From the NCBI GenBank assembly GCA_023267195.1, contig JAHFNT010000005.1, forward strand, positions 14,875-78,874: DNA of 64,000 nt, in the 5' to 3' direction. A program made the position numbers and the translations under genes. Under the pieces are notes generated by a model that saw only the letters and a program-made list of their open reading frames with translations, had not been told where the DNA came from and did no database searches. This DNA is from Candidatus Nomurabacteria bacterium. Its GTDB lineage: Bacteria > Patescibacteriota > Minisyncoccia > Phycocordibacterales > UBA9973. The number at the start of each line of letters is the position of its first letter. Position 1 is the stretch's first letter. Below are positions 34,420 to 46,012 of the stretch, one piece after another.

Positions 34420-34920
34420 ATGAAGAAAATAGCCTTATCTTTATTTGTGATTTTTGCTTTTGCGGCATATGTACTGTATGTGCGTATTATTGGTACTAAT
34501 GTGCCATTTGTCGTATTGACACCTGAACCCAATAAGCCAAAAACAAGTTTGTCTTTGCCTAAGTATGGCGGAAATACAAATACCAATACAAATGTAACCC
34601 CAAAATCAAAATCTATACCCACGACAAACAACTTAAAGTATAAAGACGGAAATTATATTGGTAAAACAATAGATGCATATTATGGCAACGTGCAAGTAAG
34701 GGCTATAATTTCTGGCGGGAAAATAACCGACGTGCAATTTTTAGATTACCCGCAAGACAGGCAGAATTCTATCCGTATTAATACCAGGGCTATGCCATAT
34801 TTGATTAGTGAAGCCATTTCAGTTCAAGATTCAAACGTGGATACAATTTCTGGTGCATCATTTACCAGTGCCGCGTATCGTGAATCACTATCGTCTGCTC
34901 TACTGCAAGCAAAAATATAA
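34420..34920 (+). CDS. FMN-binding domain protein (flavinylation substrate), membrane-anchored/exported
   Basis: N-terminal TM. The C-terminal FMN_bind domain has the flavinylation motif DTISGASFTS (Dx[ST]GA[ST]), where the Ser/Thr is the ApbE target. Confidence 0.75.
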   Translation: MKKIALSLFVIFAFAAYVLYVRIIGTNVPFVVLTPEPNKPKTSLSLPKYGGNTNTNTNVTPKSKSIPTTNNLKYKDGNYIGKTIDAYYGNVQVRAIISGGKITDVQFLDYPQDRQNSIRINTRAMPYLISEAISVQDSNVDTISGASFTSAAYRESLSSALLQAKI

Positions 34921-34922
34921 AA

Positions 34923-35696
34923 ATGAAACAAGTGCAAATTATTATGGGAACGCCAGTCGCTGTTGAGATCGTGGATAGGGAAGCAAATCAAAAACTTTTT
35001 GATGAAGTTTTTGATTACTTTAAGTATGTGGATGAAAAGTTTAGTACCTATAAAGACACTAGTGAAATTAGCGCGATAAACAATAAAAAAAATAAAGGAG
35101 AGAATACCCAAAATATATTTGGAGGAATGAGCAAAGATATGAAAGTAGTTTTTGAATTATCTCTAGAAACAAAGAAAATAACCAATGGCTACTTTGATAT
35201 CATTACTCCAAGTGGAAGCTATGACACTTCTGGCTTGGTGAAAGGATGGGCAATTTTTAATGCCAGTAATATTCTAAAAACTCGTGGGGTAAAAAACTTT
35301 TGCGTGGAAGCCGGCGGAGATATTCAAGTTTCAGGCAGAAATGAAAAAGGAGAAGCCTGGTCTATAGGCATTCAAAATCCATTTAATAAGAAAAGGGAGA
35401 TTATAAAGAAAGTTTATCTTGGCAACAATGAAGGCATAGCTACTTCTGGCACTTACGTGCGCGGGTGCCATATATACAATCCCAAAGATAAAAATGATAA
35501 ACTAGAGGAAGTTGTGAGTCTGACAGTTATAGGTTCGAATATATTTGAAGCTGACCGCTACGCTACTGGGGCTTTCGCTATGGGACAAAATGGAATATTT
35601 TTTATAGAAAGCAAGGAAAACCTAGAAGGATACGCTATAGACAAAAACGGTGTAGCAACCATGACTATTGGCTTTAAGAAATACATCAAAGAATAA
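34923..35696 (+). CDS. apbE: FAD:protein FMN transferase
   Basis: ApbE family: IMGTPV N-terminal motif, conserved core. 257 aa, at the short end of the ApbE size range. Confidence 0.7.
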   Translation: MKQVQIIMGTPVAVEIVDREANQKLFDEVFDYFKYVDEKFSTYKDTSEISAINNKKNKGENTQNIFGGMSKDMKVVFELSLETKKITNGYFDIITPSGSYDTSGLVKGWAIFNASNILKTRGVKNFCVEAGGDIQVSGRNEKGEAWSIGIQNPFNKKREIIKKVYLGNNEGIATSGTYVRGCHIYNPKDKNDKLEEVVSLTVIGSNIFEADRYATGAFAMGQNGIFFIESKENLEGYAIDKNGVATMTIGFKKYIKE

Positions 35697-35700
35697 AATC

Positions 35701-37230
35701 ATGTTTAGATTTATAGACAACTTTTTGAATAAGACAACTATGTATAGAGTAGTTCTTTATGTTCTCTTCTTTATGTTTTGTTCTGCTTTTATGCTCGCGG
35801 TGTTCAAACTTTTACCTTACACACCCATAGACCTAATAGTATCGCTCTTGGTTATTTTATTTATTTCTTTTATGGCAAATTTTATCTTCTCTTTTGTTTA
35901 TGAAGCGCCTACTAATGTGGAATCGGTGTATATCACAGCTTTGATTTTGTTCTTCGTAATTACTCCAGCCCAAGGCGGGGTATATTCGCAGTTTTTGCCC
36001 CTGGCTTTCTGGGCCTCAGTCTGGGCCGTTGCTTCAAAATATATTTTGGCTATTAATCGCAAACACCTTTTTAATCCAGTGGCTTTTGCTATAATGCTTA
36101 CCGCTCTTACTATCAACCAATCTGCTAGTTGGTGGGTAGGCACCGAGACCATGCTGCCCTTTGTTGTTTTAGGCGGACTGCTTGTGGTTAGAAAAATTCG
36201 CCGCGCTGATATGGTAACAAGTTTTTTAATTTCGGCGCTTCTTACAATTACAATGTTAGCTGTGCTAAAAAATTCAGAAATTGTTAGCACCCTATTCAAA
36301 ACGCTTAAAGATTCAGCTTTCTTTTTCTTTGCTTTCATTATGCTTACTGAACCGCTTACTGCTCCAGCTACCTTCTGGCCTCGGATAATTTATGGCGTTT
36401 TAGTTGGGTTTTTGTTTGCACCGTCGCTACACATTGGTCCATATTTTTCGACACCCGAGTTGGCTTTGGTTATGGGAAATATATTTGCGTATTTAACAAG
36501 CCCCAAGGAGAAACTATTTTTGAAATTAAAAAAACGAGTTGAGGTAGGCGCCAATACATTTGATTTTATTTTTGAGAAAGATAAAAATTTCTCTTTTCTG
36601 CCCGGGCAGTATATGGAATGGACATTAAAACATCGTGATCCTGACACTCGCGGCAATCGCCGTTATTTTACTCTAGCCTCATCACCTACGGAGCCCGAAA
36701 TACACCTAGGCGTGAAGTTTTACCAAGAACCAAGCAGTTTCAAAAATCGCCTGCTAGCCCTGCCGACAGGTGGAGAAATGATAGCTTCCAGCAGATCTGG
36801 AGATTTTGTTATGCCGAAGAGAAAAGATCAAGGTCTGGTGTTTATTGCCGGTGGCATAGGAATTACACCATTTAGAAGTATGATCCAGTACCTAATTGAC
36901 AAAAAGGAAAAAAGAGAAATAACGTTGTTTTATTCAAACAAAAAAATTTCTGATATAGCCTATAAAGAAATATTTGACAAAGCACAAAATGAACTTGGTA
37001 TAAAAATTATTTACAATATTACCGACGAAGAAAATCTGCCGCCATCGCAATCTATTAGGAAAGGTTTTGTTGACATGGAAATTATCAAAAAAGAAGTTCC
37101 AGATTATTTGCAAAAAACTTTTTATATTTCCGGTCCGCGAAGTATGGTAGAAGCTTTCAAGAGCACCCTCCGATCTATCGGGGTTAAAAGAAGAAATATA
37201 AAAATTGATTTCTTCCCGGGTTTTGCTTAA
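35701..37230 (+). CDS. polytopic membrane protein fused to an FNR-like FAD/NAD(P)H-binding oxidoreductase domain
   Basis: N-terminal ~270 aa with ~8 TM helices. The C-terminal domain carries RRYFTLAS (RxYS FAD motif), GGIGITPF (NAD(P)-binding GGxGxxP) and a YISGP C-terminal motif. The ATG at 35701 is preferred over the ORF-track start that overlaps apbE. Confidence 0.65.
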   Translation: MFRFIDNFLNKTTMYRVVLYVLFFMFCSAFMLAVFKLLPYTPIDLIVSLLVILFISFMANFIFSFVYEAPTNVESVYITALILFFVITPAQGGVYSQFLPLAFWASVWAVASKYILAINRKHLFNPVAFAIMLTALTINQSASWWVGTETMLPFVVLGGLLVVRKIRRADMVTSFLISALLTITMLAVLKNSEIVSTLFKTLKDSAFFFFAFIMLTEPLTAPATFWPRIIYGVLVGFLFAPSLHIGPYFSTPELALVMGNIFAYLTSPKEKLFLKLKKRVEVGANTFDFIFEKDKNFSFLPGQYMEWTLKHRDPDTRGNRRYFTLASSPTEPEIHLGVKFYQEPSSFKNRLLALPTGGEMIASSRSGDFVMPKRKDQGLVFIAGGIGITPFRSMIQYLIDKKEKREITLFYSNKKISDIAYKEIFDKAQNELGIKIIYNITDEENLPPSQSIRKGFVDMEIIKKEVPDYLQKTFYISGPRSMVEAFKSTLRSIGVKRRNIKIDFFPGFA

Positions 37231-37277: not shown

Positions 37278-38096
37278 ATGTCTTTAAGTATCGGGATTGT
37301 TGGTTTGCCGAACGTGGGAAAATCCACGCTTTTTAATGCGTTGACCAAAAAAGGCGTACCGGCGGAAAATTATCCTTTTTGCACCATTGATCCATCGGTT
37401 GGGATTGTGCCGGTGCCAGACGAAAGACTCACGAAACTAACAGAGATTTCTAAATCTAAAAAAACAATCCCTGCGGTAGTTGAATTTGTGGATATCGCGG
37501 GGTTGGTGAAGGGTGCATCACTAGGCGCGGGTCTTGGAAATAAATTTCTTTCACACATTCGCGAAGTAGATGCGATTGTAGAAGTGGTGCGAATTTTTGA
37601 AGACAAAGATATGATTCACGTGCATGAGAAGATCGATCCGCTTTTTGATATTGAAGTTATAAATTTTGAACTAGAGCAGGCGGGGATTAAAAAACCGACA
37701 CTGTACGTATTAAATACTTCTGCTGTAGCTGATAACATAAAAAAAGATTTTGTATCAAAACTCCCTAGTCCTTATATTGAAGTCGATCCGATTTTTGGTA
37801 CTGGTCTAGATAATTTAATTAAAGCTGGCTACGATCTACTTAATTTAATTACCTTTTTTACGACCGGAGAAGACGAATCGCGCGCTTGGACGACAGTTCG
37901 TGGAGCGACAGCGCCGACAGCCGGAAAATCCATTCATACAGACTTTAGAGACAAATTCATTCGTGCAGAAGTGGTGGCATATGAAAAACTTATAGAAGCA
38001 GGCAGTTTTGCCAAGGCAAGAGAAAAGGGTTGGGTGCGGACAGAGGGTAAAGAATATATTGTACAAGACGGCGACGTAATAGAATTTTTGATATGA
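37278..38096 (+). CDS. ychF: Obg-family GTPase/ATPase YchF (OLA1-like), short form
   Basis: [19 protein letters not shown]1 motif, [10 protein letters not shown]-terminal TGS domain. At 272 aa it lacks most of the helical insertion of canonical 363-aa YchF. Confidence 0.7.
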
Positions 38097-40795
38097 AATT
38101 TAAAACTTTGTTTAAATCAAGTGTTTTTTTTATCAAAAAATTAGTATTTTTTAGTTTTTTTATTGTTGCTAATTTATTTTTCTTTGTATCATACGTGCAG
38201 GCAAGTTCACTCTCTAGTACTCCAGCTGATTATTGGGTGACTAATGGAACAGTTAGTGCTATTGCATTAGGGTCTGATGGCACAACTTATATTGGCGGAA
38301 GTTTTACTAGCGTTGGCTTAAATGCCGGTTACGGTGCTGCTATTGATACAATCTCTGCTGTTCCTGATCTTAATTTTCCGAATGTTAATGGAATAATTCA
38401 TGCGGTTGTCTCAGATGGTTCTGGCGGTTGGTATATAGGGGGTATTTTTACCCAAGTTGGTAGTGTTTCGAGAAATAATATTGCCCATATTCTCTCTGAC
38501 AAATCAGTAGATCTTAATTGGAATCCGAATGCTAGTAATTTGGCCGGTAATGCTACTGTTTTTGCTCTTGCCGTAAGTGGTACGACAGTTTATGTTGGTG
38601 GAAGTTTTACTACCATCGGCGGCCAAACAAGAAACCGCATTGCAGCGATCGATTCAGATGGTTTAGCGACGAGTTGGGATCCGAACGCGAATGCAACTGT
38701 AAATACTCTTGCCGTAAGTGGTACGACAGTTTATGTTGGTGGAAGTTTTACTACCATCGGCGGCCAAACAAGAAACCGCATCGCAGCGATCGATTCAGAC
38801 GGTTTAGCGACGAGTTGGGATCCGAACGCTGACAGTATTGTATATGTGCTTACTGCGAATGGTACAACAATCTACGCCGGGGGAGCCTTTACCACTATTG
38901 GTGGCCAAACCAGAAATCATATCGCAGCAATCGATTCGGACGGTCTAGCGACAAACTGGGATCCAAATGCAAATAGCGATGTACGTTCACTTGTAATAAA
39001 TGGTACAACAATCTACGCCGGGGGAGCCTTTACTACTATCGGTGGCCAAACCAGAAATCATATCGCAGCGATCGATTCAGACGGCCTGGCGACAAGCTGG
39101 AATCCAAATGCTAACTCTACTGTTAATACTCTTGCCGTCAGTGGCAGCATAGTTTACGCCGGAGGATATTTTATTACCATCGGTGGCCAAACTAGAAATC
39201 ATATCGCAGCGATCGATTCAGACGGTTTAGCTACGAGCTGGGATCCAAATACGAATGATGTTGTTCATAAAATTGCTGTAAGTGGAAACGTAGTCTATGC
39301 AGGGGGTGCTTTTGTTACCATAGGTGGTCAAACAAGAAACCGCATCGCGGCTATTGGTCCTGATGGTCTCATTACCAGTTGGAATCCAAATGCTAACTCT
39401 ACTGTTAATACTCTTGCCGTCAGTGGCAGCATAGTTTACGCCGGAGGAGATTTTACCACTATCGGCGGTCAAACTAGAAATAGTATCGCAGCGATCGATT
39501 CAGACGGCCTGGCGACAAGCTGGAATCCAAATGCTAACTCTACTGTTAATACTCTTGCCGTCAGTGGCAGCATAGTTTACGCCGGAGGATATTTTAGAAC
39601 CATCGGCGGTCAAGCAAGAAACCGTATCGCAGCGATCGATTCAGACGGCCTGGCGACAAGCTGGAATCCAAATGCCAATAGTACTATTTGGGCTCTTGCT
39701 GTAAACGGGAACGTAGTTTACACCGGGGGAGATTTTACTTCTATCGGCGGTCAAGCAAGAAACCGTATCGCAGCGATCGATTCAGACGGTTTAGCTACGA
39801 GCTGGGATCCAAATGCAAGCAATACTATTTATGCTCTTGTGGTAGATAATTCTACCGTTTACACCGGGGGAGATTTTACTTCTATCGGCGGTGAAACAAG
39901 ACGTTATGTCGCGGCTCTTGATTTAAATACTGGCCTAGCCACTTCCTGGAACCCGAACGCTAGTACTAGTATTTATGCTTTAGCTTTTAGTGGTACGGCC
40001 GTTTACGCCGGGGGAGATTTTACTTCTATCGGCGGTGAAACAAGACGTTATGTCGCGGCTCTTGATTTAAATACTGGCCTAGCCACTTCCTGGAACCCGA
40101 ACGCTGGAAGTAGTTCCGTTTGGGCTCTTGCCGCTAACGATATTGCGGTTTATGTAGGTGGGACTTTTAACGTAATTAGTGGAAATTTCCGACCAAAATT
40201 TGCCAAATTTAATAAATCTTTTAATCTTTCATATGCCCCAGGTTCCAATGGTTCAATCACTGGTTCTGTTTTACAAACAGTAAATGGCGGGGATGATGGT
40301 ACAACAGTAACAGCAGTTCCAAATTCCGGTTACCATTTCTCCGGTTGGAGTGATGGATTTCTGGTCGCTTCCAGAACTGATACAAATATTTCTAGTGACA
40401 TTACAATTACTGCAAATTTTGAAGTTGATGCATCTGTTGTTAATATATACCAAAGCAGTGGTCTCAGTGTTCCATTAATCAGTCGCCCACTTGTCACCGT
40501 TTGCGAGTCAGGACATAAATTCAATATTAAAACCGGTTTACTTTGCCCTTCTTATAAAGAAAAACCCCAGTATACATCTTTACCTTCTAGGTGTTTTGTT
40601 ACTAAGCCTATGAAGTTGGGGAGCAGGGGCAAAGATGTAAAATGTTTGCAAACTAATCTAAAAGTTGTTCCGATTACCAGTTTTTTTGGGCAAAAAACAA
40701 AATCAGCCGTTATTGCTTTTCAAAAATTACACAAACTTGTCCCAGATGGAATTGTGGGGAAGAAAACAAGAGCAGTATTAAATAATAATTTATGA
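38093..40795 (+). CDS. large exported tandem-repeat (beta-propeller-like, delta-60-type) protein with C-terminal peptidoglycan-binding domain
   Basis: N-terminal signal/TM. About 13 copies of a ~47-aa unit ([38 protein letters not shown]). The C-terminal ~60 aa resemble PG_binding_1 ([14 protein letters not shown]...GKKTRAVL). Confidence 0.65.
38566..40130 (+). repeat. intragenic near-identical tandem DNA repeats (~141-bp units and sub-repeats)
   Basis: 38566-38706 and 38707-38847 are almost identical. The unit ...aatccaaatgctaactctactgttaatactcttgccgtcagtggcagcatagtttacgccggagga... recurs near 39100, 39390 and 39520. The unit ...gattttacttctatcggcggtgaaacaagacgttatgtcgcggctcttgatttaaatactggcctagccacttcctggaacccgaacgct... 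recurs at ~39880 and ~40010. Confidence 0.8.
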
Positions 40796-41694
40796 TTAAA
40801 ATGGAAAATCAAACTAAGCTTTTTTATTTGAAAGACGTAGAAGACTTTAGGGACTATGAGATGTTAGATACTGGTGGAGGAGAGAAATTAGAACGATTCG
40901 GCAAATATGTTTTTGTTCGTCCGTATGAAGATGCTATTTGGCCAAAAACTTTTTCCTATCAAGATTGGGGTAAAGCTGATGGTAAATTTTGGAGTTCTAA
41001 GGTTGGGGCGAAAGCAGGGTGGAAAATAACAAAAAAAATTACAGCAAAATGGGAAATGGAATACAAAAGTATTAAATTTCTGGTATCTCCAACACCTTTT
41101 AGGCATTTGGGATTTTTCCCAGAGCAAGCAAGTATATGGGATTTTATTGAAAATAAAATAAAAAACTCTAGCAGGAAAGTTAAATTTTTGAATTTATTTG
41201 GTTATACCGGAATCGCGAGTTTGTTTGCCTTGCGCGCTGGCGCGGAAGTGACGCATGTAGATGCTTCTAAGCAAACATTGAATTGGGCCAAGGAAAATCA
41301 AAAAGTTTCTGGCTTAGAAAATTTGCCTATGCGAATCATAGCAGATGACGCTCTCAAATTTTTGGAGCGTGAAGAAAAACGTGGTAATAAATATGATGCG
41401 GTAATCATGGATCCGCCTAAATTTGGTCGGGGTCCCAAAGGGGAAGTATGGAAAATAGAAGAAATGTTGCCGAAACTCCTTGCTCAAGTGCAAAAAGTTT
41501 TAAGCAACGAACCACTTTTCGTAATTCTGACTTCTTACGCCACCGATTCATCAGCACTTTCCTTGGGATATGCGCTTTCTGAAATAATGCAAAGGTGGGA
41601 AGGACGAACGGAAGCAGGCGAATTATGTGTCTTGGAAAAATCAAACAATCGCGCAATCTCGCTTGCGAATACCGCGCTCTGGAGTGCTAAATAA
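40792..41694 (+). CDS. class I SAM-dependent methyltransferase (RlmI/YccW C-terminal-domain-like)
   Basis: LNLFGYTGIASLFALRAGAEVTHVDAS (SAM-binding motif I), IMDPPKFG (motif IV, DPPxF). 4-nt overlap with the upstream gene. Confidence 0.65.
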   Translation: MIKMENQTKLFYLKDVEDFRDYEMLDTGGGEKLERFGKYVFVRPYEDAIWPKTFSYQDWGKADGKFWSSKVGAKAGWKITKKITAKWEMEYKSIKFLVSPTPFRHLGFFPEQASIWDFIENKIKNSSRKVKFLNLFGYTGIASLFALRAGAEVTHVDASKQTLNWAKENQKVSGLENLPMRIIADDALKFLEREEKRGNKYDAVIMDPPKFGRGPKGEVWKIEEMLPKLLAQVQKVLSNEPLFVILTSYATDSSALSLGYALSEIMQRWEGRTEAGELCVLEKSNNRAISLANTALWSAK

Positions 41695-41697
41695 AAT

Positions 41698-42036
41698 CTA
41701 TTCTTTGCTTTCGGGCTGAATCTCTTCCACGTCTTCCTGAATCTCTTCCACGTCTTCCTGAATCTCTTCCACGTCTTCCTGAATCTCTTCAATATCTTCT
41801 GATACTTCTTCGAGCTCCTCGCTGTGTTTATTTACGGTCATTTGTATGAATATCGAAAGATAAATAGCTTCCAATGAAACTATGGTGGTTAAAATAAGCA
41901 GTACATCAGAACTTGAAAAATCAAAGAAACGCAAGGCAAAAATGCCAACAAAAAATACAGTATGCGCTAAAATGGATTGGGGCGATCCAATCCAATAAGT
42001 TAGTTTTCTAGAAAATTCCTCAAACTTTTTATTCAT
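41698..42036 (-). CDS. DUF1003-like 2-TM membrane protein with acidic heptapeptide-repeat tail
   Basis: Two TM helices (ILAHTVFFVGIFAL; LLILTTIVSLEAIYLSIFIQMTVNKHSEE) followed by the C-terminal (EEIQEDV)x4 repeat. Confidence 0.5.
   Translation of the reverse strand: MNKKFEEFSRKLTYWIGSPQSILAHTVFFVGIFALRFFDFSSSDVLLILTTIVSLEAIYLSIFIQMTVNKHSEELEEVSEDIEEIQEDVEEIQEDVEEIQEDVEEIQPESKE
41713..41800 (-). repeat. 21-bp perfect tandem repeat (x ~4) encoding EEIQEDV
   Basis: gtcttcctgaatctcttccac is repeated head-to-tail. It also creates the artefactual MKRFRKTWKRFRKTW ORF on the opposite frame. Confidence 0.85.
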
Positions 42037-43162: not shown

Positions 43163-46012
43163 ATGAGGTTGTATGATCATAAGAAAATAGAGAAAAAATG
43201 GCAAAATATTTGGGAGAAAAAGGGGATTTATCATGCTATAGACCCGGTCAAGGGCGGGGCAAGTAAACCAAAAAAGCCCAAATATTATAGCTTGATAGAA
43301 TTTCCATATCCCTCAGGGGATGGTTTGCATGTGGGTCATCCCAGGCCATATATCGGGATGGATATAATCTCAAGGAAAAGAAGGCTGCAGGGTTTTAATG
43401 TTTTGTACCCGATCGGCTGGGATGCGTTTGGTCTTCCGACGGAAAACTTTGCCATAAAGACAGGTAAGGATCCACGATTTGTTACGAAGAAAAATAGCGA
43501 AAATTTCAAACAACAGATACAATCGCTTGGAATTTCTTTTGATTGGTCTCGAGAAATAAATACAACTGATCCGAAATATTATAAATGGACACAGTGGATA
43601 TTTTTGCAGTTTTTGAAGAAAGGATTGGCCTATAAGGCCAAAATGAATATCAACTGGTGTCCGAAGGACAAGATCGGTCTTGCGAATGAAGAAGTTATAG
43701 GCGGTTGTTGCGAGCGATGTGGGGCACAGGTAGAAAAAAGAGAGAAAGAGCAGTGGGTGTTGGCGATCACTAAATATGCAGAGCGTTTAGATAAAGACTT
43801 AGATGGTGTGGATTATTTGCCACAAATTAAACTTGCTCAAAGAAATTGGATAGGGAAGTCGGAGGGTGCGGAGATAGAATTTAAGATTACGGATTATGAG
43901 TTAAAAATTAAAGTTTTCACCACTCGTCCCGATACTATTTTCGGCGCGACTTATGTTGTTTTAGCACCGGAACACCAATTGATCAATGACCTAAAATCAA
44001 GAATTTCCAACTGGACTGAAGCGGAAGATTATATTAAAAAAACAAAACAAGAAACAGAGATAGAGCGCACGGCAGAAAATAAAACAAAAACAGGAGTAGA
44101 GTTAAAAGGGGTAAAGGCGATCAATCCCGGGAGCAAAGAAGAAATTCCTATCTGGATTGCCGACTATGTGCTTGCAAATTATGGCACAGGGGCTATCATG
44201 GCTGTGCCGGCGCACGATGAAAGGGATTTTGAATTTGCGAAGAAATATAATTTGGAGATAAAGCAAGTCATTCAACCAATTTTTGGTATAGAAAATAAAA
44301 GAAAAGAAGCAGTACACAGAAACACTATTACTGGTATTGTGAAAAGTCGTGACGGGAAGAAAATTTTAATGTTAAAATGGAAAGATTATGATTGGTTAAG
44401 TGGTGTAATAGGAGGTATTGAGGGTGATGAGTCTCCAGAACAAGCAGCGGAGCGAGAAGTGTTAGAAGAAACAGGATATAAAACTAAAGCTATTTTTGTT
44501 TCCCCAATAAAAGTTGAATCGCATTTTTTTGCTGAACATAAAAATGAATGGCGTTCGAGGATAGACACCCCAGTTGTTTTGGAGTTGGTGGATGAGAAGC
44601 CAGAAATAATTTCCGAGAAAGAACAAGCAAAACATGAGGTAAGGTGGGTTGATATAAAAGAAGTTTTTGCTTCAACTATGTTTGGAAACAATAAACTTGC
44701 AATAGAATTAGCACTTTCACGAAGTGCCTATACTGGTTTTAATGGAGACCAAAGAGACTCCTTAATAAATTCTGGCAGATTTGATGGAATGGATTCCCAA
44801 AAAGCCAAGAAAGAAATTATAAAATTTGTTGAGGGAAAAGAAAAAACCACTTTCAAGCTTCGCGACTGGATATTTTCCCGTCAGCGATATTGGGGTGAGC
44901 CGATACCGGTTGTACGATGCGAGAAATGCGGGTTAGTTCCTGTGCCGGAGAAGGATCTGCCAGTAGAACTTCCAAAAGTGAAAAATTATCAGCCGACGGA
45001 TAGCGGAGAATCGCCACTCGCAAATATTTCAAAATGGGTCAATACTAAATGTCCTAAATGTAAAGGCAACGCAAAAAGGGAAACAGATACCATGCCAAAC
45101 TGGGCAGGATCCAGTTGGTATTATTTACGATACACAGATCCCAAAAATTCTAAAGAGTTTGCTGGTAAGAAAAATTTGAAATATTGGACGCCGGTAGATT
45201 GGTATAACGGAGGAAATGAACACACCACACTTCATCTTTTATATTCACGTTTTTGGCATAAATTTTTATATGATTTGAAACTAGTGCCCACAAGCGAGCC
45301 CTACATGAAACGTACCTCGCATGGGATGATTTTAGGCGAGGGGGGCGTAAAGATGTCCAAATCGCTAGGTAATGTCATAAATCCGGACGAAATGGTAAAA
45401 ATTTACGGCGCGGATACGCTTCGCATCTATGAGATGTTTATGGGGCCATTTGATCAATCTGTAGCTTGGTCTACAGAAAGTATTATTGGCGCGAGGAGAT
45501 TTATAGAAAAAATTTGGCGGTTGCAATTTAAGGTGGGTAAAACAAGCGATAGTGGAATAAAGAAAATTTTAAATAAAACCATAAAAAAAGTTTCTGAAGA
45601 TATTGAGAATATGAATTTTAATACAGCAATTTCTTCTATGATGATCTTGGCAACTGAGATAGAAAATGAAAAAAGTGTCTCAAGAGAAGACTATAAAAAA
45701 TTCTTGCAAATACTTTCTCCCTTTGCGCCGCATATAACCGAAGAATTGTGGAGCTTGCTCGGAGAGAAAAAATCTATCAATCTTTCCACTTGGCCAAAAG
45801 TGGATGAAACTTTTCTCAAGGATGAAGAAATTAAAATCGTGATTCAGATCAATGGCAAAGTCAGAGCGCAAATTATTGTGAAAGCTTCTGATCCAGAAGA
45901 AAAGATAAAAGAAAGAGTTTTTAGCGACCCCAGCGTGTTAAAACATTTAGGGAACAAGGGGATCAAAAGAACAATTTACATTAAAAATAGACTTATCAAC
46001 CTTGTGGTTTGA
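43163..46012 (+). CDS. leuS: leucyl-tRNA synthetase with an inserted Nudix hydrolase domain
   Basis: HIGH motif HVGHPRPY, KMSKS (VKMSKSLGN), CP1 editing TTRPDT...AVPAHDERD, and a LeuRS C-terminus. An extra ~150 aa (nt ~44295-44765) contains the Nudix box GGIEGDESPEQAAEREVLEETGY. Confidence 0.9.
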   Translation: MRLYDHKKIEKKWQNIWEKKGIYHAIDPVKGGASKPKKPKYYSLIEFPYPSGDGLHVGHPRPYIGMDIISRKRRLQGFNVLYPIGWDAFGLPTENFAIKTGKDPRFVTKKNSENFKQQIQSLGISFDWSREINTTDPKYYKWTQWIFLQFLKKGLAYKAKMNINWCPKDKIGLANEEVIGGCCERCGAQVEKREKEQWVLAITKYAERLDKDLDGVDYLPQIKLAQRNWIGKSEGAEIEFKITDYELKIKVFTTRPDTIFGATYVVLAPEHQLINDLKSRISNWTEAEDYIKKTKQETEIERTAENKTKTGVELKGVKAINPGSKEEIPIWIADYVLANYGTGAIMAVPAHDERDFEFAKKYNLEIKQVIQPIFGIENKRKEAVHRNTITGIVKSRDGKKILMLKWKDYDWLSGVIGGIEGDESPEQAAEREVLEETGYKTKAIFVSPIKVESHFFAEHKNEWRSRIDTPVVLELVDEKPEIISEKEQAKHEVRWVDIKEVFASTMFGNNKLAIELALSRSAYTGFNGDQRDSLINSGRFDGMDSQKAKKEIIKFVEGKEKTTFKLRDWIFSRQRYWGEPIPVVRCEKCGLVPVPEKDLPVELPKVKNYQPTDSGESPLANISKWVNTKCPKCKGNAKRETDTMPNWAGSSWYYLRYTDPKNSKEFAGKKNLKYWTPVDWYNGGNEHTTLHLLYSRFWHKFLYDLKLVPTSEPYMKRTSHGMILGEGGVKMSKSLGNVINPDEMVKIYGADTLRIYEMFMGPFDQSVAWSTESIIGARRFIEKIWRLQFKVGKTSDSGIKKILNKTIKKVSEDIENMNFNTAISSMMILATEIENEKSVSREDYKKFLQILSPFAPHITEELWSLLGEKKSINLSTWPKVDETFLKDEEIKIVIQINGKVRAQIIVKASDPEEKIKERVFSDPSVLKHLGNKGIKRTIYIKNRLINLVV

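Follow-up and report, generated by a model that had tools for sequence, protein, structure and literature searches.

The 900-aa product of a gene in the 64,000-nt window that we analysed is best read as a secreted, wall-tethered propeller of 14 blades from a Nomurabacteria-type (Patescibacteria/CPR) bacterium, with patchy gene conversion among its blades, a fixed blade number and an origin by lineage-specific insertion, a reading to which we assign a probability of about 0.72. The initial annotation was right that the ORF is real, and its reading frame is intact. The gene is joined by ATGA overlaps at both ends, its start to the stop codon of ychF and its stop codon to the start of a methyltransferase gene. 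Scans for regulatory signals were uninformative, with fewer promoter-like sites than in shuffled sequence and about as many terminator-like sites. Terminator-like matches within the repeats are on the opposite strand and reappear as the repeat does, and antisense ORFs of 60-81 aa within the gene were taken as by-products of the repeats. The features of the locus are collected in Table 1.

Table 1. Features of the propeller gene and its flanks, in positions of the window
Feature	Position	Strand	Basis
Short-form YchF GTPase gene, upstream	37278..38096	+	
Whole gene, 900-aa ORF	38093..40795	+	ORF list
Putative Sec-type signal peptide or membrane anchor, aa 1-37	38093..38203	+	By-eye sequence reading; modelled helix
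Blades 1-2, divergent terminal blades	38234..38530	+	Unit HMM, blade comparison
Blades 3-13, homogenised inner blades, 47 aa (last ones 48-49 aa)	38531..40087	+	Identity comparison
Near-identical tract pair, blades 3/4	38565..38829	+	
Exact 113-nt tract pair and 69-nt tracts of blades 7, 9 and 10	39061..39596	+	
Exact 98-nt tract pair, blades 12/13	39864..40105	+	
Blade 14, degenerate closing blade	40088..40216	+	Unit HMM, blade comparison
Divergent InlB B-repeat domain (Flg_new_2, PF18998), aa 711-778	40223..40426	+	Pfam
Cys-bracketed motif in linker, aa 804-818 (15 residues)	40502..40546	+	
PG_binding_1 (PF01471), aa 846-896, DGIVGxKT motif	40628..40780	+	Pfam, PDB sequence search
SAM-dependent methyltransferase gene, downstream, synteny anchor	40792..41694	+	

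The central part of the gene is, as first described, a tandem array of a 47-aa module. Its 141-nt period extends from 38549 to 39901 (TRF score 1140, against 1387 for a period of 423 nt) and is far beyond chance, with ten copies in exact 141-nt register and one pair spaced by 144 nt. The count of about 13 copies did not hold, since a unit HMM search of the protein located 14 units at aa 48-708.

These units belong to DUF5122 (PF17164), which Pfam reports with 123.9 bits against a cutoff of 27 (E = 2.7e-36) in 11 significant stretches. Of the two affiliations proposed initially, DUF5122/delta-60 is therefore correct at the Pfam level, but YVTN is not, the latter repeat being absent from Pfam and NCBIfam output at E ≤ 1. 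TIGR02608 gave no row in the NCBIfam scan at E ≤ 1, although the release may lack that model; NCBI uses the name 'delta-60 repeat domain-containing protein' for some members, among them the homologue P0046. Our protein shares with the family the blade consensus GGxFTxIGGQxRNxIAAxD...WNPNA and the 14-blade module of most homologues, although in most of the listed homologues the propeller occurs together with T9SS sorting domains, FlgD-Ig, fn3 or Ig; cadherin also occurs among these extracellular anchors and domains.

An AlphaFold2 model with pLDDT above 90 over aa 45-710 was all-beta, with about four strands per 47 aa, and thus predicts a propeller fold of four-stranded blades; the C-terminal 190 residues were modelled poorly (pLDDT below 50). 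The propeller part had no match in the PDB sequence search. The best Foldseek match in the PDB was 2ymu_A (E = 3.6e-18, 677 aligned columns, TMt 0.62), with tandem double propellers, among them BT4663, Aip1, Utp21 and Pwp2, next in rank. Structure 2ymu is the WRAP domain of Nostoc punctiforme Npun_R6612, a 'highly repetitive propeller' whose 14 blades form two 7-bladed propellers, with internal repeats that are alike at the DNA level and only 10 substitutions in 14 blades (PMC9218822). Judged by these fold matches and by family blade counts that cluster at multiples of 7, the 14 blades described here most likely form two 7-bladed rings as well. Both proteins have 14 similar blades encoded by repeats alike in DNA, but the WRAP domain is of the WD40 class, intracellular, fused to a STAND ATPase and only 13% identical in sequence to our protein. 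Its blades are near-identical throughout, whereas ours are identical in patches only and the terminal blades are old.

The flanking domains are consistent with export and anchoring to the wall. Read by eye, the N-terminus has a Lys-rich n-region, a hydrophobic helix at aa 13-32, which the AlphaFold2 model also places there, and then ...VQA|SS. Downstream of the propeller, Flg_new_2 scored 51 bits, above the gathering score of 23.6; this region is 54% identical to the corresponding one of homologue P0090, and the InlB-B-like domain is probably a stalk or spacer. The peptidoglycan-binding domain annotated at the C-terminus was recovered by Pfam (40.7 bits against a cutoff of 23) with a conserved DGxxGxxT-type motif, and the tail matched 5nm7_G (E = 8.8e-6) and 5tv7_A in the PDB sequence search, so that it is predicted to act as a non-covalent wall anchor. 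A similar Cys-bracketed motif precedes PG_binding_1 in three otherwise unrelated wall-anchored proteins of related (CPR-like) genomes. With DUF5122, Flg_new_2 and PG_binding_1 all found by Pfam and the propeller region modelled confidently, the description of a secreted beta-propeller ending in a peptidoglycan-binding domain is supported.

Among the best 120 homologues, only P0090, 45% identical to our protein, has the same propeller, InlB-B and PG_binding_1 architecture, and a homologue search with the C-terminal 192 aa returned, among 121 candidates passing the word prefilter, only separate InlB-B or PG_binding_1 proteins. The protein resembles other PG_binding_1-anchored secreted proteins in its C-terminal domain, above the Pfam cutoff and with a DGIxGxxT motif, but pairs the anchor with a binding propeller instead of a hydrolase and has the extra Cys-bracketed motif ahead of the domain.

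PG_binding_1 is mostly found on wall hydrolases, its matches here include an endolysin-type domain and SleB, and double propellers of similar structure, BT4663 for example, sense glycans. The protein could thus act on the cell's own wall, for instance as a scaffold, sensor or lectin for wall polymers or remodelling enzymes, rather than as an outward-facing adhesin. We consider this rather unlikely: the Pfam and NCBIfam scans of the protein revealed no catalytic domain, no wall-synthesis genes neighbour the locus, and the occurrence of the same tail on BNR-propeller and glycosidase-like proteins of relatives suggests a generic anchor.

At the DNA level, the resemblance among blades is lower and patchier than the initial annotation stated. 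The pair cited there as more than 95% identical (38566-38706 and 38707-38847) shows 91.5% identity over 141 nt, and the best whole-unit pair, blades 9 and 10, reaches only 94%. What does exist are near-identical tracts of 69-124 nt, shorter than a unit and crossing blade borders. The longest, 38565-38688 versus 38706-38829, covers 124 nt at 98.4% identity, with two differences, both synonymous. Two others are exact, 39061-39173 versus 39484-39596 (113 nt, shift 423, across blade borders) and 39864-39961 versus 40008-40105 (98 nt, shift 144), and further tracts comprise 69 nt at 100%, common to blades 7, 9 and 10, and 71 nt at 97%. The majority of the other blade pairs show 60-80% identity and are close to saturation at synonymous sites (pS 0.5-0.8), as opposed to pS 0.13-0.15 for blade pairs 3/4 and 9/10. 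The arrangement is a mosaic: the stretch that runs from the 3' part of blade 6 into the 5' part of blade 7 recurs across blades 9 and 10, again joining the 3' part of the former to the 5' part of the latter, and the 69-nt core of blades 7, 9 and 10 surrounds a highly divergent blade 8.

Comparison with other family members separated the blades into two classes. Blades 1 and 2, and to a weak degree blade 14, are orthologous by position, whereas blades 3-13 are not, and each of the latter is more similar to its best sister blade (identity 0.70-0.94) than to its best foreign blade (0.67-0.80) among approximately 2,200 blades of other proteins. Across the family, inner blades show a diagonal minus off-diagonal identity of 0.002, terminal blades one of 0.165. 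The lack of positional orthology and the closer relationship to sister than to foreign blades indicate that the inner blades evolve in concert. Median pairwise blade identity is 0.68 for blades 3-13 and 0.52 for all 14. Highly repetitive beta-propellers are defined by a median internal blade identity above 60% (Pereira & Lupas 2022); compared with those described in 2019 (PMC6805158), our protein exceeds this value in its inner blades but falls short of it over all blades, and so qualifies as 'locally repetitive' only, with divergent flanking blades.

Of the three processes invoked initially, recent expansion, contraction or gene conversion, the data bear out a recent homogenisation of some blades, and gene conversion is the best fit, although a single sequence does not fully distinguish it from rounds of local duplication and loss. 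Conversion is what the mosaic tracts point to, and 'gene conversion' has 0 occurrences in the highly repetitive propeller paper. The most similar blades are mostly neighbours (3/4, 5/6, 9/10 and 12/13), as tandem duplication predicts, and locally repetitive propellers inside older arrays have been described (PMC9218822), so that the likeness might instead stem from recent re-amplification of one or a few blades followed by divergence. This is rather unlikely, because the identical tracts are out of step with unit borders, the 6/7 versus 9/10 mosaic fits conversion better, and holding the number at 14 would need a compensating deletion for each duplication.

Blade number itself looks fixed, with 14 as the apparent canonical count. 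In a sample of the best 120 homologues, which was ranked by score to a 14-blade query and may therefore bias the counts, 75 had 14 detected units, 14 had 13, none had 15 or 16, and the remainder clustered near 21 and 28; repeat number among relatives is thus not unconstrained. Complete metagenomic relatives had mostly 13-14 units, with two at 28 and one at 7. Some DUF5122 members contain 17 or 19 contiguous units, and the number is therefore not absolutely fixed in the family.

The initial annotation also saw in the array a hallmark of contingency or host-interaction surface proteins and a likely site of assembly collapse, at which the true copy number may be higher; neither a contingency locus of variable copy number nor a probable collapse is supported. 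All k-mers of 114 nt or longer are unique within the gene, indicating that no whole unit is exactly duplicated and that ordinary 150-nt reads can be placed uniquely. Together with the canonical 14 blades and the match to the two sevens of 2ymu, this suggests that the assembly is probably sound, and we see no reason to flag the gene as a collapsed or phase-variable locus. An exact look-up of the protein sequence in public assemblies found nothing, and when metagenomes were scanned with the N-terminal 170 aa, which are unique, no close strain variant appeared, the best match having 55-60% identity.

Gram-positive bacteria have tandem-repeat surface proteins of variable size, in which each repeat is an independent, bead-like domain and copy number is consequently free to change. 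The gene studied here resembles the genes of such proteins in its long, in-frame, near-identical DNA repeats and wall-associated product, but its repeats are probably blades of closed toroids and their count lies at the family norm. A repeat number that expands and contracts between strains, with the assembled number collapsed, is highly improbable, even though slippage or unequal recombination can act on in-frame exact or near-exact tracts as long as 113-124 nt, the longest exact internal repeat (113 nt) exceeds those in the genes of 19 complete relatives (15-65 nt), and blade number varies both in a few DUF5122 proteins, those with 17 or 19 units, and in some repetitive propeller families (PMC9218822). 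Against it stand, besides the dominant count and the k-mer result, the distinct terminal blades 1, 2 and 14 in canonical positions, the intact, in-frame ORF and the constraint that a closed toroid fold would impose on blade number.

We then placed the gene in its genomic context. A genome scan anchored on the downstream methyltransferase found the propeller gene in none of 56 relatives. The distance between ychF and the methyltransferase gene was within 191 nt in 35 of 51 relatives, and the other 16 carried other inserts, none of them a propeller. The junction thus appears variable and the gene a lineage-specific insertion in it; at the same junction, related genomes encode the BNR-propeller and glycosidase-like proteins with the same tail.

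The gene lies within the window's highest-GC 2-kb bin (0.442), it is missing from about 50 relatives, and its best-scoring homologues are in Bacteroidota, Spirochaetes and others, all of which would agree with a very recent horizontal acquisition from a distant phylum. Raised GC was nevertheless rejected as a sign of foreign origin by codon-position analysis: GC3 is host-like (0.31, versus 0.35 ± 0.04 in other genes), and codon position 2 accounts for all of the excess (0.51 versus 0.35), indicating an effect of amino-acid composition. The high identity to proteins of distant phyla arises because the blades are near the family consensus. Since, in addition, P0090 is encoded on a contig with a similar low-GC gene and the tail cassette is common to proteins of related genomes at this junction, we find such an acquisition very unlikely.

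Under the favoured reading, a wall-tethered propeller of fixed blade number, a Sec signal peptide would export the protein to the surface, where PG_binding_1, following the Cys-bracketed linker, would tether it non-covalently to the cell's own peptidoglycan. The InlB-B-like domain would form a short stalk, and the DUF5122 head, most likely two 7-bladed propellers, would serve as a ligand-binding platform, whose ligand may be a glycan or a protein borne by a substrate or by a partner cell. The near-identical tracts would be short patches of gene conversion or unequal recombination among inner blades 3-13, with fold closure keeping the number at 14, and would not be a sign of unstable copy number. 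The gene would be a lineage-specific insertion between its two neighbours with codon usage matching the host genome. The full-text literature searched contained no experiment or characterised homologue for the ligand or function of DUF5122 propellers, a single structure-modelling study being the one paper to mention the family, and a Patescibacteria paper that mentions beta-propellers was set aside, as it concerns host-side sensors.

We also entertain, as a bolder and quite unlikely proposal, that in this host-dependent ultra-small bacterium the propeller is an adhesin for a partner cell or substrate, and that selection favours patchwise conversion between its eleven inner blades as a way to reshuffle the binding surface while the 14-blade frame and the fold stay constant. 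If so, this would be a mechanism of diversity distinct from phase variation of repeat number, and the ychF/methyltransferase junction would be a reusable slot, where a common tail of Cys motif and PG_binding_1 receives different wall-anchored heads in turn (DUF5122, BNR propellers, a glycosidase-like domain).

The gene joins a known and very large family as an ordinary member; the practical value of the analysis lies in its corrections, chiefly that the repeat count, 14, is canonical. It brings to a propeller family of uncharacterised function an architecture anchored to peptidoglycan, here in a candidate-phyla bacterium, and it offers a clear single-gene case of a family-wide pattern in which terminal blades are orthologous and inner blades are homogenised within each gene. 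Should the surface proteins of such episymbionts become accessible to experiment, studies of attachment could reasonably include this protein and the wall-anchor tail that it shares with others.

The 900-aa ORF is intact and encodes 14 propeller units (aa 48-708), as counted with an HMM built from its ten regular units, of which the two at the N-terminus are divergent, the next eleven are similar to one another and the last is degenerate. The tandem array of 47-aa modules described in the initial annotation was recovered, including ten copies in an exact 141-nt register plus one pair spaced 144 nt, but its count of about 13 was not; likewise, the >95% identity it reported between units 38566-38706 and 38707-38847 was measured at 91.5%, with the best whole-unit pair reaching 94%.

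Pfam assigned three families above curated cutoffs, and an NCBIfam scan added nothing specific. The Lys-rich start, followed by a hydrophobic helix (aa 13-32; also a helix in the model) and VQA|SS, has by eye the form of a predicted Sec signal peptide. A PDB sequence search retrieved peptidoglycan-binding domains only (e.g. 5nm7_G). In an AlphaFold2 model from a 36-sequence alignment, aa 45-710 were all-beta with pLDDT above 90, and the tail was poor. The best solved match was 2ymu_A, "a highly repetitive propeller structure" (E = 3.6e-18, 677 aligned columns, TMt 0.62), followed by the tandem double propellers BT4663, Aip1, Utp21 and Pwp2. Because the 14 blades of 2ymu form two 7-bladed propellers (PMC9218822), we infer that the head is a 2x7 double propeller, which would work as other tandem double propellers do. 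The DUF5122 matches, the model and its structural matches support the beta-propeller first proposed for this gene, and the PG_binding_1 match supports the peptidoglycan-binding domain after the repeats.

Features of the window and of related loci compared with it
Feature	Location	Strand	Details
FMN_bind, ApbE flavin transferase, 520-aa fusion	34420-37230	+	
YchF	37278-38096	+	272 aa; G domain, C-terminal DUF933
Propeller ORF	38093-40795	+	900 aa, intact
ATGA overlaps	38093-38096; 40792-40795		both ends of propeller gene
Tandem array	38549-39901		period 141, 9.6 copies, 78% matches, score 1140; also period 423, score 1387 (Tandem Repeats Finder)
DUF5122 beta-propeller	11 stretches		Pfam E = 2.7e-36
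Flg_new_2 (divergent InlB B-repeat)	aa 711-778		Pfam E = 1.4e-13
Cys-bracketed motif	40502-40546		
PG_binding_1	aa 846-896		Pfam E = 2.7e-10
Membrane protein	41698-42036	-	112 aa
21-nt perfect tandem repeat	41716-41790		3.6 copies, 100% matches; in membrane protein gene
LeuRS	43163-46012	+	949 aa; NUDIX hydrolase domain aa 390-503 (Pfam E = 5.5e-12)
Tandem BNR/Asp-box proteins	L035 5577-9108		479 and 688 aa
Second BNR protein	L035 7042-9108		688 aa; query-like tail
Junction insert	L044 2781-4757		658 aa; query-like tail

The family is very large (>7,700 significant matches). Among the best 120 of these, 75 proteins contained 14 units, 14 contained 13 (seven of them with a gap that probably hides an undetected unit) and two contained 12; none had 15 or 16, 13 had 17-21 and 16 had 25-28. 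Complete genes from metagenome loci mostly had 13-14 units; two of them had 28 and another had 7. Together with the 75 of 120, this makes 14 units the canonical module. The distinct blades 1, 2 and 14 are placed as in other family members, and no k-mer of at least 114 nt is repeated; there is no exactly duplicated whole unit, and a 150-nt read is uniquely placeable. The canonical count, terminal-blade positions and k-mer uniqueness argue against both assembly collapse and copy-number contingency, with two caveats: the 120 matches were ordered by their score against a query that itself has 14 blades, and a few members have 17 or 19 contiguous units. Thus, while the initial annotation largely described the protein correctly, these two inferences from it are not supported. 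Short perfect repeats, such as the 21-nt repeat encoding the acidic (EDVEEIQ)n tail of a nearby small membrane protein, are more plausible slippage-prone sites than the propeller repeats. An exact-sequence look-up in public assemblies found no record of the protein, the nearest genomes (78-82% identity in a neighbouring gene) all lack the propeller, and a metagenome scan found no variant closer than 55-60%.

A set of 83 further proteins with 14 blades served for a blade-by-blade comparison. Blades 1 and 2 were best matched by positions 1 and 2, respectively (mean 0.62 vs ~0.35 elsewhere), and blade 14 weakly by position 14, whereas blades 3-13 matched all inner positions equally (~0.5-0.6). 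Each of these inner blades was more similar to its closest sister blade (0.70-0.94) than to the closest of ~2,200 blades from other proteins (0.67-0.80). Across 3,486 protein pairs, diagonal exceeded off-diagonal identity by 0.002 for inner and by 0.165 for terminal blades, so within-gene homogenisation of inner blades is a property of the whole family. Our protein ranked 36th of 133 by mean blade identity and 21st of 84 by inner-blade median.

Near-identical tracts cross unit borders: one of 124 nt (98.4% identity, both differences synonymous), three identical ones of 113, 98 and 69 nt, and one of 71 nt (97%). The proportion of synonymous differences was 0.13-0.15 in blade pairs 3/4 and 9/10 and 0.5-0.8 in most others, which are old. 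The stretch running from the 3' part of blade 6 into the 5' part of blade 7 recurs identically from the 3' part of blade 9 into the 5' part of blade 10, and a 69-nt core is common to blades 7, 9 and 10, surrounding blade 8, the most divergent. In the single sequence compared, this mosaic appears to fit short patches of conversion or unequal recombination better than the plain duplication of entire units. At the DNA level, our gene has an exact internal repeat of 113 nt, longer than any in the complete genes of 19 relatives (15-65 nt); the same-architecture homologue, L001, had just 15 nt. Of the phenomena already described, the nearest is the "locally repetitive" class of propellers defined by Pereira & Lupas (PMC9218822). 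The WRAP propeller resembles our protein through its number of blades and its internal repeats; its sequence class and cellular compartment are different.

The gene is packed tightly with its neighbours, with ATGA overlaps at both ends. Upstream lie genes for an FMN_bind protein, ApbE, a fusion of RnfD/NqrB-like membrane and NAD-binding oxidoreductase domains, and a short YchF; the first three may form a compact flavin-based membrane redox module. YchF is typically roughly 360 aa, well above the 272 aa here, and relatives have forms of 272-329 aa, so its middle region varies in this clade. Downstream are a SAM-dependent methyltransferase, a DUF5671 protein and a LeuRS with a NUDIX domain inserted directly after its editing domain, an apparently unusual fusion. 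With the methyltransferase as anchor, we retrieved 56 loci (L002-L057), almost all of which carry the label Nomurabacteria, Paceibacterota or Patescibacteria. Both ychF and the methyltransferase gene are present in 51 of them; in 35 of these the two lay within 191 nt, often with an ATGA overlap. None had the propeller there, and the other 16 carried diverse, unrelated inserts: permeases, a PaaX-like protein, a nucleotidyltransferase, an IS200-like transposase, a phosphoglycerate-mutase-like gene, BNR/Asp-box propeller proteins and a glycosidase-like protein. The junction is thus a variable insertion site. No paralogue was found in the window or in relatives' flanks. The GC content of the gene is raised, with 0.51 vs 0.35 at codon position 2 and a host-like GC3 (0.31 vs 0.35 ± 0.04), so the rise reflects a Gly/Ala/Thr-rich composition rather than recent foreign origin.

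Two junction inserts, from L035 and L044, have tails 39-50% identical to aa 803-900, sharing a Cys-bracketed motif, C-x2-G-x2-F-x3-TG-x2-C, before PG_binding_1. The motif, covered by no Pfam family, also occurs in P0090, the only protein among the matches listed with the full architecture (45% identity, 98% coverage, different neighbourhood). Its presence before PG_binding_1 in four otherwise unlike secreted proteins makes the tail look like a reusable wall anchor in these bacteria, of which the motif may be a small disulfide-bonded element. In L035, the two tandem propeller proteins at this junction have highly similar blades (YTSSDSGxxWTERQPAGD), and the second adds Ig-like repeats to this tail type, so that here, in parallel, a repetitive propeller is joined to the shared anchor. 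Our protein belongs to both DUF5122 and PG_binding_1-anchored proteins, a domain combination rare, although not unique, among the matches listed.

The order of the domains, the confidently modelled propeller and the canonical number of blades are established; on that basis the protein would be exported by the Sec pathway and tethered non-covalently to peptidoglycan by its C-terminal domain, with the InlB-B-like domain serving as a stalk and the double propeller facing outward as a putative binding platform. An extracellular role is supported by T9SS sorting, FlgD-Ig, fn3, cadherin and Ig domains on homologues from other phyla. That conversion reshuffles the binding surface of a head carried on an exchangeable wall-anchored scaffold seems improbable, at roughly one chance in eight. 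Cultivated Patescibacteria are episymbiotic and, by analogy, we speculate that the protein may have a role in host attachment.
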